64,000 nucleotides of DNA from positions 4,388 through 68,387 of the forward strand of contig JBKDBK010000002.1 of the NCBI GenBank assembly GCA_046315175.1, written 5' to 3'. A program made the translations under genes and the position numbers. Below are positions 58,541 to 64,000 of the stretch, in pieces. How positions within the stretch are numbered: position 1 is the stretch's first letter; each line of letters starts with the position of its first letter. This DNA comes from Opitutia bacterium. Its GTDB lineage: Bacteria; Verrucomicrobiota; Verrucomicrobiia; Opitutales; UBA953. The notes beneath the pieces were generated by a model that did no database searches, was not told the origin of the DNA, and saw nothing but the letters and a program-made list of their open reading frames with translations.

Positions 58541-60091
58541 ATGGCCAACCAGACCATCGCCGTCCTCGATTTCGGGTCCCAGTACACCCAGGTCATCGCC
58601 CGGCGCATCCGCGAGTGCCGCGTCCACTCCCGCATCTATCCCTTCGGCGTCGACGCCGCCACCCTCCGCGCCGACGGCGTCCGCGGCGTCATCCTCTCCG
58701 GCGGTCCCGCCAGCGTCCGCGCCAAGGGCTCGCCCCGCCCCGATCCTGCCGTCTTCGACCTCGGCGTGCCCGTCCTCGGCATCTGCTACGGCGTCCAGCT
58801 GATGGGCGAGATGCTCGGCGGCAAGGTCGCCCCCTCCGCCCACCGCGAGTACGGGCACGGCACCCTCCGCTTCCGCGCCGGCTCCGACCTCCTCCACGGC
58901 CTTCGCGGCCCCCTCCGCGTCTGGAACTCCCACGGCGACAAGGTCGCGCGGCTCCCCCGGGGCTTCCGCGCCGTCGCCAGCACCGAGAACTCGGAGCACG
59001 CCGTCGTGCAGGACTCCGCCCGGCGCTTCTACGGCATCCAGTTCCACCCCGAGGTCGCCCACTCCGAGCGCGGGATGGACATCCTCCGCAACTTCCTCTT
59101 CCGCATCTGCCGCTGCCGCCCCGACTGGGTGATGGAGGACTACGCCGGCGCCGCCATCCGCCAGATCCGCGCCCAGGTCGGGAAGTCCCACGTCATCCTC
59201 GGCCTTTCCGGCGGGGTCGACTCCTCCGTCGCCGCCGCCCTCATCCAGAAGGCGATCGGCCGCCAGCTGACCTGCGTCTTCGTCGACAACGGCCTGCTCC
59301 GCCTCGGCGAGCGCCAGCAGGTCGAGCGCATGTTCCGCGGCCGCTTCAAGGTCGACCTCCGCGTGGTCGACGCCTCCGACCGCTTCCTGCGCAAGCTCCG
59401 CGGCGTCACCGACCCCGAGCGCAAGCGGAAGATCATCGGCCACGAGTTCATCCGCGTGTTCGACGCCGAGGTCGCCAAGATCCGCCGCCGCGGCAAGGTC
59501 GAGTTCCTCGCCCAGGGCACCCTCTACCCCGACATCATCGAGTCCGTCGCCATCGACGGCAACCCCGCCGCCACCATCAAGAGCCACCACAACGTCGGCG
59601 GCCTCCCCAAGCGCATGAAGCTCCGCCTCCTCGAGCCCCTGCGCGAGCTCTTCAAGGACGAGGTCCGCGCTCTCGGCGAGGCCCTCGGCCTCCCCAAGCC
59701 CATGGTCTGGCGCCACCCCTTCCCCGGCCCCGGCCTCGCCGTCCGCGTCTGCGGCGAGATCACGCGCGAGCGCCTCGACATCCTCCGCCAGGCCGACGCC
59801 ATCTTCATCGACGAGCTCCGCGCCTCCGGCCTCTACGACAAGGTCTGGCAGGCCTTCGCCGTCTTCCTTCCCGTCCGCACCGTCGGCGTGATGGGCGATG
59901 AGCGCACCTACGACCACGTCTGCGCCCTCCGCGCCGTCACCTCGTCCGACGCCATGACGGCCGACTGGGCCCACCTTCCCCACGACTTCCTCCGCAAGGT
60001 CTCGTCCCGCGTCATCAACGAGGTCAAGGGCTTCAACCGCGTCGTCTACGACATCTCCTCCAAGCCGCCCTCCACCATCGAGTGGGAGTGA
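58541..60091 (+). CDS. guaA: glutamine-hydrolysing GMP synthase
   Basis: GATase domain ([20 protein letters not shown]), PP-loop SGGVDSSV, and C-terminal ...KPPSTIEWE. Confidence 0.98.
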
Positions 60092-60101
60092 GCCGGGGCC
60101 G

Positions 60102-61631
60102 TTGACACCCGCCCCCGCCCTCGCCACCCTCCGGCCAGTGCCCGAACCCGCCTTCCAGGTCATCGCCCGCCGCTGGCGCCCCCGCGCCTTCGGCGAGATC
60201 GTCGGCCAGCAGCACATCGTCCGCACCCTCGGCAACGCCATCCGCGGCGGCCGCATCGCCCACGCCTACCTCTTCGTCGGCCCCCGCGGCACCGGCAAGA
60301 CCACCACCGCCCGCATCCTCGCCAAGGCCCTCTGCTGCGAGGGCGGCCCCAAGGCCGACTTCGACCCCGACGACCCCGTCTGCCGCGAGATCGAGCAGGG
60401 CTCGTACCTCGACGTCGTCGAGATCGACGCCGCCTCCAACCGCGGCATCGACGACGCCAAGTCCATCCGCGAGGCCTGCCAGGTCCGCCCCGCCGGACGG
60501 TTCAAGGTCTTCATCATCGACGAGGTCCACCAGCTCAGCAAGGACGCCTTCAACGCCCTCCTCAAGACCATCGAGGAGCCCCCGCCCTGGGTGAAGTTCA
60601 TCTTCGCCACCACCGAGTCCGACAAGGTCCTCGAGACCATCGTCTCCCGCTGCCAGCGCCTCGAGTTCCAGCCCATCCCCGACGCGCTCATCGCCGACCG
60701 CCTCGAGGCCATCGTCAAGGCCGACGGCATCCAGGCCGACCGCGAGGCCCTCCTCGCCATCGCCCGCCTCGCCCAGGGCGGCATGCGCGACTCCCAGTCC
60801 ATCCTCGACCAGATCATCGCCTTCGCCGGCAAGAAGGTCGCCGAGAAGGACGTGCTCGACATCTACGGCCTCGCCTCCGCCCGCGAGCTCCAGGACCTCG
60901 CCGCCGCCCTCGCCAAGGCCGACGCGTCCGCCCTCCTCGCCCTCGCCGACCGCTTCCACGCCGACGGTCGCGACCTCCTCCGCATCCACGCCGACCTCCA
61001 GTCACACGTCCGAGCCGCCATGCTCGACGCCGCCCGCTCCGGCGGCCGCAGCGCCCGGCTCGGCGCCGAGCTCGGTTCCGACACCCTCGTGCGCATGCTC
61101 GACACGCTCCAGCAGGCCGAGCCCTCCCTCCGCCATGGACTCTCCCCGCGCGCCGTCTTCGAGGTCACCCTCCTCAAGGCCGCCGAGCAGACCCGACACC
61201 GATCGGTCGACGCGCTCATCCGCGACCTCAGCGCCGCCGCCAACGGACTCCCCCGGGAGCCCGGCCAAAAAAAAATAGGCACTCCGCCTCCCGCGGTCGC
61301 CCCCGCCGCGCCAGCCCCCGTCGCATCGGCGGCCCCGGTCGCTTCGGTTGCCCCGGTCCCGCCCGCGCGGCCCGTCGACGACGGCCCGCCCGACGACGTC
61401 CTCGACGTTCCGGAGGCCGCCGCCGATCTCGCTGAGTCTTGGCCCGAGCCCTCGACCGCCGCCGCCCAGGTCCTTCCCGAGGCCGCGCCCGCCCGGCCCG
61501 GCGCCCCGGAGTTCGACCAAGCCCTCGGCGCCATCCCCCCCGGCGTCCGCGCCAAGCTCAAGGAAACCCTCGGCGCGGAGTTCTCCCAGCTGCGCCCCCT
61601 CAAGCCCGGCGCGCTCCGCCGCCCGCGCTGA
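60102..61631 (+). CDS. dnaX: DNA polymerase III subunits gamma/tau
   Basis: AAA+ clamp-loader core (GQQHIVRTLGNAI..GRIAHAYLFVGPRGTGKTT, FIIDEVHQLS, SRCQRLEF) with a Pro/Ala-rich linker after the A9 tract. Start uncertain (TTG 60102 or GTG 60138). Confidence 0.93.
   Translation: MTPAPALATLRPVPEPAFQVIARRWRPRAFGEIVGQQHIVRTLGNAIRGGRIAHAYLFVGPRGTGKTTTARILAKALCCEGGPKADFDPDDPVCREIEQGSYLDVVEIDAASNRGIDDAKSIREACQVRPAGRFKVFIIDEVHQLSKDAFNALLKTIEEPPPWVKFIFATTESDKVLETIVSRCQRLEFQPIPDALIADRLEAIVKADGIQADREALLAIARLAQGGMRDSQSILDQIIAFAGKKVAEKDVLDIYGLASARELQDLAAALAKADASALLALADRFHADGRDLLRIHADLQSHVRAAMLDAARSGGRSARLGAELGSDTLVRMLDTLQQAEPSLRHGLSPRAVFEVTLLKAAEQTRHRSVDALIRDLSAAANGLPREPGQKKIGTPPPAVAPAAPAPVASAAPVASVAPVPPARPVDDGPPDDVLDVPEAAADLAESWPEPSTAAAQVLPEAAPARPGAPEFDQALGAIPPGVRAKLKETLGAEFSQLRPLKPGALRRPR
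61267..61278 (+). other. A9 homopolymer immediately followed by TAG inside dnaX (candidate recoding / slippage site)
   Basis: ggc caa aaa aaa ata ggc in frame. TAG at 61276-78 is in the +1 frame. The -1 frame runs to TGA 61433-35. Confidence 0.6.
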
Positions 61632-61641
61632 GGCCGAGGCC

Positions 61642-62094
61642 ATGACGCGCATCGGCCTGATCGCGGACACCCACGGGCTCCTGCGCCCGCAGGCCCTCGT
61701 CGCCCTCGAGGGGTGCGACGCCATCCTGCACGCGGGCGATGTCGGCGAGGCCGACCTGCTCGACGCCCTCGGCGACCTCGCCCCGACCCTCGCCGTCGCC
61801 GGCAACTGCGACGACCTTCCCGGCCTCCCCCTCGAGCTCATCCACCTCGCCGCCTCCCGCCGCATTCTCCTCCACCACGGCCACCGCGCCGTCGACGAGG
61901 CCGCCCACCGGCCCGACATCGTCGTCACCGGCCACACCCACCAACCCCTCGTCCGCCGCGACGCCGCCGGCCCCCTCCGCGTCAATCCCGGCTCCGCCGG
62001 CCCCCGCCGCTTCCGCCTCCCCGTCACGGTGGCCATCCTCACCCTCGGTCCGGGCGAGCCCGCCGCCGAGATCATCGAGCTCGACGTCCGATGA
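61642..62094 (+). CDS. YfcE/MJ0936-family metallophosphoesterase
   Basis: IGLIADTHG...HAGD...GNCD...HHGH...GHTH motif series. 150 aa. Confidence 0.85.
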   Translation: MTRIGLIADTHGLLRPQALVALEGCDAILHAGDVGEADLLDALGDLAPTLAVAGNCDDLPGLPLELIHLAASRRILLHHGHRAVDEAAHRPDIVVTGHTHQPLVRRDAAGPLRVNPGSAGPRRFRLPVTVAILTLGPGEPAAEIIELDVR

Positions 62095-64000
62095 GCTCCG
62101 CCCTGCCCATCGAGTCCCTCCGCGAACCCCTGCGCGAAGCCTGCGCCCGCACCCGCCGCATCGTCCTCCGCGCCCCCACCGGCTCCGGCAAGTCCACCCA
62201 GGTGCCCCAGATGCTCGTCGACCTCGGCCTCGTCCAGGGCCAGGTCGTCGTCCTCCAACCCCGCCGCATCGCCGCCCGGCTCCTCGCCGCCCGCATTGCC
62301 GCCGAGCGCGGCGGCCGGCTCGGCGACGAGGTCGGCTACCAGATCCGCTTCGACCGCGTCGAGTCCGCCGCCACCCGCATCAAGTTCGTCACCGAGGGCC
62401 TCCTCCTCCGCCAGATGGCCGCCGACCCCGCCCTGCGCGGCGTCGGCGCCGTCGTCTTCGACGAGTTCCACGAGCGCAACCTCCACGCCGATGTCGCCCT
62501 GGCCCTCGCCCGCCGCCTCCAGGCCACCGAGCGGCCCGACCTCCTCCTCGTGGCCATGTCCGCCACGCTCGACACCGACGCCCTCGCCGCCTGGCTGGGC
62601 GACGCCGTCACCCTCGCCGCCGACGGCCGCACCTATCCCGTCGACATTGAGAACGTCGCCACCCCCCAGGTCGCCGGCCGCTGGCCCTGGGAACCCGCCG
62701 CCGAGCAGGTGCGCCGCCTCCTCCGCGAGGAACCCTCGGGCGACCTCCTCGTCTTCATGCCCGGCGCCCACGAGATCAGCCGCACTCTCGGCCTCCTCCG
62801 CAACGCGCCCGAGTGCCGCGGCGTCGACCTCCTCCCCCTCCACGGCGACCTGCCCGCCGACGAGCAGGACCGCGCCGTCCGCGCCGGCGACACCCGCAAG
62901 GTCGTCGTCGCCACCAACGTCGCCGAGACCTCCCTCACCCTCCCCGGCATCCGCGCCGTCGTCGACGCCGGCCTCGCCCGCGTCGCCCGCTTCGACCCCG
63001 TCCGCGGCATCGACACCCTCCTGACCGAGCCCATATCCCAGGCCTCCGCCGAGCAGCGCGCCGGCCGCGCCGGACGCACCGGCCCCGGCCGCTGCGTCCG
63101 CCTCTGGTCCCGCTCCGAGCACGAGGCCCGCCCCGCCCGCCAGACCCCCGAGATCCGCCGCGTCGACCTCTGCGAGACCCTCCTCCTGCTCCGCGCCGGC
63201 GGCTGGGGCGACGCCGCCGACTTCCCCTGGTTCGAGCCGCCCGAGCCCCGCGCCGTCGAGCGCGCCCGCGCCACCCTCGCCGACCTCGGCGCCCTCGGCC
63301 CCGAGGGCGACATCACCCCCCTCGGCCGTCGCATGGCCGCCTTCCCCGCCCACCCCCGCCTCGCCCGCATGCTCCTCGCCGCCGGCGACCTCGCCTGCGT
63401 CCCCGAGGTCGCCCGCATCGCCGGCCTCGAGCAGGGCAGGGACATCCTCCTGCGCAATGTCGACGCGTCCGTCGAGGCCGCGCGCGACGCCATCCCCTGC
63501 CCCCCGGGTTCCGACTTCCACCTGCGCCTCGCCCTCCTCGCCCGCGCCGCCGACCTCCGCTTCGACCCCGACGCCTGCGACCGCCTCGGCATCCACGCCC
63601 AGGGCGCCCGCGAGGCCGAGCGCGCCGCCCAGCAGTTCCTCCGCATCGCCCGCGCCCAGGGCCTCCCCGCCGACACACCCCCCGCCGACCCCGACGCCCT
63701 CCGCCGCTGCCTCCTCCTCGGCCATTCCGACCGCATCGCCGTCCGCCTCGACGCCGGCACCCTCCGCTGCGCCGTCGCCCACGGCCGCAAGGGCGAGCTG
63801 CGCCGCGAGACCTGCGTGCGCGACGCCCGCCTCCTCGTCGCCGCCGAGATGGAGGAGGTCCAGGTCCGCGGCCAGGTCGTCACCCTCCTCGCTCTCGCCA
63901 CCGCCGTCGACGAGGCCTGGCTCCGCGACCTCTTTCCCGGCGACTTCCACGAGGTCGCCGCGCCCCGCTACGACCCGACCCTCCGCCGCGTCGTCACCCG
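62091..64000 (+). CDS. hrpB: ATP-dependent DEAH-box helicase HrpB (3' end outside window)
   Basis: ATG overlaps the upstream stop (ATGA). Motifs APTGSGKSTQVPQ, DEFHERN, SATL, TNVAETSLT, QRAGRAGR. Frame is open to base 64000 and not in the ORF track because it has no stop. Confidence 0.9.
   Translation, partial: MSSALPIESLREPLREACARTRRIVLRAPTGSGKSTQVPQMLVDLGLVQGQVVVLQPRRIAARLLAARIAAERGGRLGDEVGYQIRFDRVESAATRIKFVTEGLLLRQMAADPALRGVGAVVFDEFHERNLHADVALALARRLQATERPDLLLVAMSATLDTDALAAWLGDAVTLAADGRTYPVDIENVATPQVAGRWPWEPAAEQVRRLLREEPSGDLLVFMPGAHEISRTLGLLRNAPECRGVDLLPLHGDLPADEQDRAVRAGDTRKVVVATNVAETSLTLPGIRAVVDAGLARVARFDPVRGIDTLLTEPISQASAEQRAGRAGRTGPGRCVRLWSRSEHEARPARQTPEIRRVDLCETLLLLRAGGWGDAADFPWFEPPEPRAVERARATLADLGALGPEGDITPLGRRMAAFPAHPRLARMLLAAGDLACVPEVARIAGLEQGRDILLRNVDASVEAARDAIPCPPGSDFHLRLALLARAADLRFDPDACDRLGIHAQGAREAERAAQQFLRIARAQGLPADTPPADPDALRRCLLLGHSDRIAVRLDAGTLRCAVAHGRKGELRRETCVRDARLLVAAEMEEVQVRGQVVTLLALATAVDEAWLRDLFPGDFHEVAAPRYDPTLRRVVT

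Follow-up and report, generated by a model that had tools for sequence, protein, structure and literature searches.

The dnaX Locus and Its A9 Run

The stretch of DNA analyzed here, referred to as the window in the following, comprises 64,000 nt from an Opitutia bacterium of the order Opitutales (GCA_046315175.1, contig JBKDBK010000002.1, positions 4,388 to 68,387 of the forward strand), and all coordinates given are those of the window. It harbors a dnaX gene, which encodes the gamma/tau subunit of DNA polymerase III, and this gene contains a run of nine A's (A9) as a candidate site for the synthesis of both tau and gamma from one gene. The full-length dnaX product corresponds to tau, whereas gamma, as it is known from other bacteria, consists of the clamp-loader core without the C-terminal part of tau. 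The following features are found at the locus:

60102 to 61631, + strand: dnaX open reading frame (DNA polymerase III gamma/tau), 509 codons in a single open reading frame, with the zero-frame stop TGA at 61629-31
61267 to 61275, + strand: A9 slippage-prone run, with frame 0 reading cAA AAA AAA Ata
61276 to 61278, + strand: TAG stop in the +1 frame, adjoining A9, which would end gamma on an mRNA with eight or eleven A's (A8, A11) or after a +1 ribosomal shift
61274 to 61435, + strand: read-through of 53 codons in the -1 frame up to TGA 61433-35, with a tail rich in Arg, the product expected of an mRNA with ten A's (A10) or of a -1 ribosomal shift
61278 to 61496, + strand: hypervariable Pro/Ala-rich linker, present in tau only
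61497 to 61628, + strand: conserved tau-only C-terminal motif of 44 residues, defined by conservation across 107 homologues

The N-terminal part of the window DnaX protein is an AAA+ clamp-loader module with lid and domain III. It matches the NCBIfam model TIGR02397 (dnaX_nterm) with 374 bits at a cutoff of 250, the Pfam models PF13177, PF22608, and PF12169 (clamp-loader, lid, and domain III) all score over their cutoffs, and E. coli gamma/tau structures from the PDB match with an E-value of 1e-66. Judged from these domain and structure matches, the predicted gamma protein would correspond to the crystallised E. coli gamma core, whereby the C-terminal motif would be lost. This motif of about 45 residues reads ...PEFxxAxxxxPxGxxxKLKxTLGAEFxxLRP....LRRP and yielded no match in Pfam, NCBIfam, or the PDB. 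We presume that it is a putative contact site for the polymerase or the helicase, and it may represent a polymerase- or helicase-binding tail that has so far not been described. With regard to the translation start, TTG 60102 adds 12 residues that are absent from homologues, whereas GTG 60138 (MPEPAFQVIARRW...) suits the N-terminus of the family better. Since the homologues begin with M/V-SEP-FQVIARRW (M/V-S-E-P-x-FQVIARRW with the variable position included), GTG 60138 is likely to be the actual start codon of the gene.

The sequence around the run reads ...ccc ggg agc ccg gcc AAAAAAAAA tag gca c... (61254-61290: cgggagcccggccAAAAAAAAAtaggcactccgcctc), and in the dnaX frame it is decoded as ccc ggc caa aaa aaa ata ggc, which translates to P G Q K K I G. 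The run spans codons 389-392 when counted from TTG 60102 and codons 377-380 when counted from GTG 60138. The Pfam match to domain III ends about 25 residues before it and the Pro/Ala linker follows directly after it. The initial annotation, which was made from the letters of the window without database searches, had placed A9 at 61267-61275 within the dnaX frame at the border of domain III and linker, and had predicted an immediate TAG in the +1 frame and about 53 further codons in the -1 frame up to TGA 61433-35. When the sequence was reread, coordinates and codons agreed with this description, the TAG and the -1 reading frame (the tail of which begins with NRHSASRGRPRR...) were found as predicted, and the Pfam match bears out the position at the border.

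In its sequence context the run is exceptional. The window has a GC content of 71.5% and A9 is its sole run of A or T that is longer than six; from base composition, 0.0017 such runs would be expected in the window, and none was obtained in 100 dinucleotide-preserving shuffles. The content of G or C at third codon positions (GC3) of the window dnaX is 0.95, and both of its AAA codons (2 among 20 Lys codons) as well as its single ATA codon (1 among 28 Ile codons) fall within the A9 site. L170, a Logan assembly made independently, likewise contains A9 followed by TAG in a dnaX gene whose protein is identical, with a synonymous change one codon further on, so that the run is not an assembly artefact.

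Conservation of the Run and of the Adjacent Stop Among Opitutales

DNA sequences of relatives were fetched with an alignment of only the N-terminal 376 residues of the protein, so that the site itself was excluded from the query. The search covered genome contigs and metagenome contigs, with cultured Opitutus and the other classes of Verrucomicrobiota lying outside the sample, and a second retrieval from metagenomes was seeded with divergent Opitutae. Codon entropies were derived from 27 genes and stop distances from 39 A9 loci. For the initial annotation, a lack of the run and of the out-of-frame stop next to it in close relatives would have spoken against recoding. The opposite was found, as all 36 Opitutales loci that cover the site carry a run of at least nine A's at the homologous border among the matches listed (29 with A9, 6 with A10, and one with A11). 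Each of the 29 A9 loci among these has the run in the same phase as the window and TAA or TAG next to it, and the result was the same for seven more relatives, which were picked because amino acids close to the site differ in them. Relatives with another residue in place of Arg have AAG or ACG there, and both codons retain the G that is paired in the predicted 5' hairpin described below. Overall, TAA or TAG follows the run directly in the +1 frame in all 39 A9 loci, at a per-locus chance of 0.004-0.06. At the protein level, G[QE]KKI is found at the border to the variable linker in 120 of the 120 best protein homologues (58-99% identity, from metagenome-assembled genomes (MAGs) of Verrucomicrobia/Opitutales), and in these 120 homologues the residue that follows can always be encoded by a codon starting with A or G.

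This conservation of the run exceeds what the protein sequence requires, as is seen from the codon entropy and from the 36 of 36 loci mentioned above. The stretch CGG GAG CCC GGC CAA AAA AAA ATA (REPGQKKI) has a normalised codon entropy of 0.026 compared to a gene median of 0.65, and it is the lowest-entropy stretch of eight codons in dnaX, in genes whose GC3 reaches up to 0.97. The entropy is 0 at CAA/GAA, AAA, AAA, and ATA. The first two A's of the run are likewise invariant, whereby the codon is CAA or GAA and never CAG or GAG. It could be that the site is not recoded at all, the run being kept because the protein needs QKKI or as a signal in DNA or RNA, and that gamma arises by proteolysis as in Caulobacter or is not made. 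Some bacteria do make tau only, or obtain gamma via ClpXP cleavage. However, a need for these residues leaves unexplained why synonymous positions are frozen at a GC3 of 0.95, why the +1 stop is invariant, and why there are relatives with the essential C-terminus of tau out of frame (see the next section), and we therefore regard an absence of recoding as improbable.

The stop of the -1 frame behaves differently from that of the +1 frame. Across the relatives the first -1 stop is located 4-289 codons away, which is indistinguishable from chance (median empirical p 0.31), and it is apparently not under selection. Thus, for the -1 route that had been proposed alongside the +1 route, the 53 further codons in the window are correct, but selection for a -1 stop was not seen. 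This bears on a -1 ribosomal frameshift of the E. coli type, in which ribosomes stimulated by an upstream GGGAG would slip on A_AAA_AAA (61268-61274) and synthesize the core plus 53 residues. The heptamer is in phase, GGGAG is present 8 nt upstream of it, and dnaX of E. coli works in this way. Nevertheless, the chance-like distance of the -1 stop, the conserved TAG in the other frame, and the heptamer itself, which is reported to be much less shift-prone in bacteria than A_AAA_AAG, speak against it, as does the lack of a conserved 3' structure and of an Rfam match. Downstream (3') structure did not rise above background in the window (z = 0.15) or across 17 relatives (median percentile 0.21), and the Rfam search up to an E-value of 10 returned a single hit, which is an unrelated chance match. 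An E. coli-type frameshift element was rejected on the grounds of the missing Rfam family, the missing 3' structure, and the unselected -1 stop, and such a shift is in our judgment very improbable.

Relatives that share the window arrangement are referred to as type I in the following. Among the matches listed, 79 of 85 type I loci have A9. Variants in run length with identical flanks occur in L100 (A8), in L109 and L142 (A10), and in L017, which equals L116 (A11). These may reflect polymorphism, homopolymer errors of the assemblies, or slipped RNA if the sample is a metatranscriptome. A further locus, L091, has a genuine-looking A8 that is preceded by TT (TTA8), whereby Gln is changed to Leu. 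The A8, A10, and A11 assemblies with identical flanks would be in line with phase variation at the DNA level, in which slippage during replication switches cells between a tau-encoding and a gamma-only state. Against this, tau is essential in the bacteria studied, so that gamma-only cells should need rescue by slippage at the RNA level, A9 is by far the prevailing length in the type I loci, and the variants may be homopolymer assembly errors; a phase-variable switch is therefore hardly to be expected here.

Swapped Architectures Within the Class

The arrangement of reading frames around the run is not the same in all relatives. Three types were distinguished:

Type I (window): A9 followed by TAA or TAG (TAR); frame 0 encodes tau, with the tau C-terminus in frame 0, and gamma needs one A fewer or two A's more
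Type II (marine): A10 GCCCTAG; frame 0 stops after 2 codons, the -1 frame encodes the tau C-terminus, and one A must be added for tau
Type III (gut clade L029-35 and L090, and also L133/136/138): A10 followed by TAA, TGA, or TAGCTGA; frame 0 stops, the +1 frame encodes the tau C-terminus, and tau requires the loss of one A or the gain of two

In type II the +1 frame is closed after about 7 codons, and in type III the tau C-terminus in the +1 frame was recognized by the motif RFxAEFSxxR. In L029-35, L090, and L132-L169, dnaX is thus split, with gamma in frame 0 and tau in another frame, whereas the window gene is a single open reading frame. Type II is the form that has been published for Coraliomargarita (Antonov et al., 2013; PMC3711429). 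Opposite shift directions are needed within one bacterial class, since type II and type III differ in the frame of the tau C-terminus. Because close relatives have the essential C-terminus of tau in the -1 or in the +1 frame, the A run is, as far as can be judged from these sequences, decoded in more than one frame in these bacteria. According to the literature, the occurrence of both shift directions within one gene family is a signature of slippage at transcription.

The inference of recoding made in the initial annotation is supported by this comparison, because the sister clades with A10 have gamma in frame and need a shift for tau; the run in 36 of 36 loci among the matches listed, the +1 stop in 39 of 39 loci, and the frozen codons also support it.

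Outside of the Opitutales, A9 was found at the border of domain III and linker in 11 of 43 dnaX loci of Acidobacteriota among the matches listed (Pyrinomonadaceae/Blastocatellia-type MAGs: L038, L044, L047, L054, L057, L058, L063, L064, L071, L074, and L080), where it occurs as 'gAAAAAAAAActYTRA'. The stops of these loci are one codon away in the +1 frame and four codons away in the -1 frame, which is a Thermus-like layout.

A Predicted GC-Rich Hairpin and a Shine-Dalgarno-Like Element Precede the Run

Two further features of the window are located directly upstream of A9:

61244 to 61263, + strand: hairpin in the nascent RNA, CGG-A-CUCC-(cccg)-GGAG-C-CCG, predicted by folding and ending 3 nt 5' of the A run
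61255 to 61259, + strand: Shine-Dalgarno-like GGGAG, read from the sequence, 7 nt 5' of the run and at the same time the 3' arm of the inner stem of the hairpin

In most type I relatives the hairpin takes the form GCYGG-N-CUCC-(NNNG)-GGAG-N-CCGGC, which has a longer stem and ends 1 nt 5' of the run. With a free energy of -16 to -19 kcal/mol it belongs to the top 0.3-0.8% of local folds in these relatives, where it exceeds every other 26-nt fold of the gene in stability. In 24 distinct sequences, 87% of the cells are paired, and both this percentage and the covariation score exceed the values of all 500 shuffles, although the relatedness of the sequences inflates such numbers. Compensatory changes consist of G-C/A-U and A-U/C-G exchanges at two pairs, with five cells showing double changes. 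With 20 sequences, measures that count pairs were not significant (27 of 500 shuffles). Strong proof by covariation was rejected, since the region is too conserved, double changes are few, and the sequences are related; the covariation support for the predicted hairpin is thus moderate. A GGAG or AGGA core is present in all type I relatives. In the window, GGGAG ends 8 nt before the A_AAA_AAA heptamer, and this element is conserved, yet it doubles as a hairpin arm, so that its function is inseparable from that of the hairpin.

The strength of the 5' hairpin, expressed as the percentile among local folds, differs between the types of loci:

Type I: median percentile 0.003, with 88% in the top 5%
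Type III (needs one A fewer): median percentile 0.05, with 5 of 10 in the top 5%
Type II (needs one A more): median percentile 0.23, with 3 of 22 in the top 5%
Acidobacteriota A9: median percentile 0.28, with 2 of 11 in the top 5%

Hairpins are commoner at type III than at type II sites (Mann-Whitney U test, p = 0.0097, with clades that are not independent of one another). The idea that a hairpin accompanies every dnaX A run was rejected, as the A9 sites of Acidobacteriota and the marine type II A10 sites mostly occur without one. We infer a role of the hairpin in the direction of slippage from its conservation and from its association with the shift direction.

On the minus strand, the reverse complement of the run and its flank resembles an intrinsic terminator (AGGCGGAGTGCCT followed by T9, 61289 to 61267). 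This candidate was rejected, since its stem of five pairs, three of which are GC, is weak, relatives have a hypervariable linker next to the run, and the minus strand has no convincing gene with its end at this place. The pattern is probably incidental.

Proposed Mechanism of Tau and Gamma Synthesis

The A9 run of dnaX is probably a programmed transcriptional slippage site of the Thermus type, by which both tau and gamma would be made. When RNA polymerase transcribes the T9 template, the whole RNA:DNA hybrid of 9-10 bp would be homopolymeric, so that the transcript could shift its register, and slipped transcripts would yield mRNAs that differ in the number of A's. An mRNA with A9 or A12 would encode full-length tau with clamp-loader core, linker, and the conserved C-terminal motif. 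In an mRNA with A8 (one A lost) or A11 (two A's gained) the abutting TAG would come into frame and gamma would be produced, which would end with ...LPREPGQKK or ...QKKK and comprise about 379 aa from GTG 60138 or 391 aa from TTG 60102. An A10 mRNA would encode the core with an out-of-frame tail of 53 residues. Heterogeneous transcripts, two proteins, and a bias of the hairpin towards the loss of one A are what we infer for this locus.

The alternative that would yield the same protein is a +1 ribosomal frameshift, in which tRNA-Lys, bound in the P site to the second AAA while the rare AUA codon is next to be decoded, re-pairs one base forward, TAG enters the A site, and gamma ends with ...GQKK, whereas the mRNA stays A9. 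The +1 TAG/TAA as the only out-of-frame stop under selection, the sole ATA among the 28 Ile codons of the gene, which is plausibly slow to decode, the perfect re-pairing that is possible on the A run, and the conserved Shine-Dalgarno-like GGGAG upstream would all suit such a shift. However, four to seven A's would suffice for it, whereas none of the nine varies, not even the synonymous third base of CAA/GAA; this invariance fits the need for a certain hybrid length better than a ribosomal shift site of 4-7 nt. Moreover, the sister clades have kept A10 and not a short motif, with shifts needed either way. Compared to +1 shifts of the prfB type, the A site would hold the sense codon AUA and not a stop codon, and GGGAG is located 12 nt before the P-site codon, so that the features of that system are not present here. 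The Shine-Dalgarno spacing in prfB is 3 nt, and in work by Larsen in 1994 on prfB and dnaX, a spacing such as 12 nt reportedly favored -1 and not +1 shifts. A shift at transcription is thus favored over one at translation on the basis of these sequence comparisons, and we consider the +1 ribosomal frameshift to be unlikely.

Some observations weigh against this reading. Slippage of the Thermus type has A10 as its commonest product, and the frame that an A10 mRNA would use, -1, has no stop for 53 codons in the window and for up to 289 codons in relatives. Thus, it might be that either the slippage spectrum differs here from that of Thermus, or a wasteful product is tolerated. In addition, ribosomes that shift by +1 on AAA_A while the rare AUA is in the A site would make the same product at the same TAG, and the hairpin of the window itself has a free energy of only -10 kcal/mol and reaches only the top 10% of local folds. 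As a more specific and tentative proposal, which we hold to be somewhat less probable than its opposite, the hairpin that abuts the run might cause a forward realignment of RNA polymerase in which exactly one A is lost, in the manner of the Roseiflexus IS630 element, so that gamma would be made from A8 mRNA with little A10, the direction of slippage would be programmed by the structure, and A9 and A10 would toggle within the class. The loss of one A is the change that puts the conserved TAG in frame, and A11 reaches the same frame as A8. A forward realignment that drops one A would explain why only the +1 stop has been selected.

Comparison With Known Recoding Systems

The production of two subunits, tau and gamma, by a single dnaX gene is a textbook example of recoding. 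Why cells need gamma is still debated. For Thermus thermophilus, transcriptional slippage on A9 in dnaX with about 50% gamma has been reported (Larsen et al., 2000, as described in PMC1088944, PMC5009743, and PMC3711429). Slippage there mainly adds A's, in ever smaller proportions, and each of the two alternative frames is closed by a nearby stop. The window gene resembles the Thermus gene in that A9 lies in the sense strand of the same gene, tau is encoded in a single open reading frame, the run is located between the clamp-loader core and the tau-specific part, and an out-of-frame stop is near. The likeness drawn in the initial annotation, with the same gene, the same A9, and the same position at the border, is therefore correct. 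The two cases differ in that Thermus has both alternative frames closed nearby (GAGAAAAAAAAAGCCTGA) and slipped mRNAs with added A's, whereas in the window group only the +1 stop is selected, adjoining the run (A9 TAG), 53 codons of the window can be read in the -1 frame before a stop, and a predicted GC-rich hairpin that is conserved lies 5' of the run. Furthermore, the Thermus case has been demonstrated experimentally, whereas the window site is a predicted one.

Two-frame dnaX genes with A10 have been reported for Chlorobi, Bacteroidetes, and Coraliomargarita akajimensis (Antonov et al., 2013; PMC3711429). These genes share recoding at an A run in dnaX with the window gene, Coraliomargarita (Opitutae) belongs to the same class, and the marine relatives L132-L169 share the Coraliomargarita form 'A10 G..C..TAG/TGA'. 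They differ, however, in being split, with gamma in frame and tau dependent on a shift, whereas in the window gene tau is in frame within a single open reading frame; a survey that detects frameshifts, such as that of Antonov et al. (2013), would hence not have flagged it.

The dnaX gene of E. coli employs a -1 programmed ribosomal frameshift at A_AAA_AAG, with a 5' Shine-Dalgarno-like element and a 3' stem-loop. Gene, predicted output (gamma without the tau C-terminus), and A-rich site are alike in both, and the window has a Shine-Dalgarno-like GGGAG upstream, which is at the same time an arm of the hairpin. In contrast, the heptamer of the window ends in A and not in G, a 3' stem-loop is not conserved, the -1 frame is not closed for 53 codons, and it is in the +1 frame that a stop has been selected. 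A parallel to the arrangement of the hairpin is the transposase of Roseiflexus IS630, in which slippage depends on a stem-loop in the nascent RNA and leads to the loss of one nucleotide (Penno et al., 2015, as described in PMC5009743). In both cases a GC-rich stem-loop is located directly 5' of the slippage motif. However, the Roseiflexus motif is a heteropolymeric T5C5 on which slippage is undetectable without the stem-loop, whereas the motif of the window is A9, a run that in other bacteria needs no stem-loop for slippage.

Slippage at a dnaX A9 run is what specialists in recoding would expect. A9 slippage in dnaX (Thermus) and the split A10 genes (Chlorobi, Bacteroidetes, Coraliomargarita) are already known. 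Literature searches on dnaX slippage in Opitutales/Verrucomicrobia found no earlier report of the single-frame A9-TAR form of the Opitutales or of its hairpin, but only Antonov et al. (2013). A putative slippage site would have been kept across an order of Verrucomicrobiota in an extremely GC-rich gene. Single-frame slippage sites are invisible to annotation and to pipelines that detect frameshifts, and a short clamp-loader subunit would accordingly be missing from the predicted proteomes of these bacteria. The series within the class (A9 with tau in frame, A10 with tau in +1, and A10 with tau in -1, some of the sites having a 5' hairpin and others not) constitutes a natural experiment on the direction and efficiency of slippage. 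For practical purposes, the run should not be "corrected" in assemblies, and differences in its length there should be read with slippage in mind.

Further Observations on the Locus and Its Relatives

For some of the relatives the taxonomic labels are at odds with the sequences. The GTDB titles of L001, L002, L005, L024, and L030 name unrelated taxa (uncultured Enterobacteriaceae, Klebsiella sp., Akkermansia muciniphila, and Sphaerochaetaceae) although the contigs are clearly Opitutales-like, so that they look like mislabelled MAGs. The gene order guaA, dnaX, Metallophos_2 phosphoesterase, and hrpB-type helicase is common to all relatives examined (window 58541-64000; L081-L089 and L170). Between 58000 and 64000 every convincing gene of the window is on the + strand, and the region displays a strong and uniform strand asymmetry, with a GC skew of about -0.25 throughout and with 39% C and 32% G over the window, which probably reflects the preference of the genome for codons ending in C.

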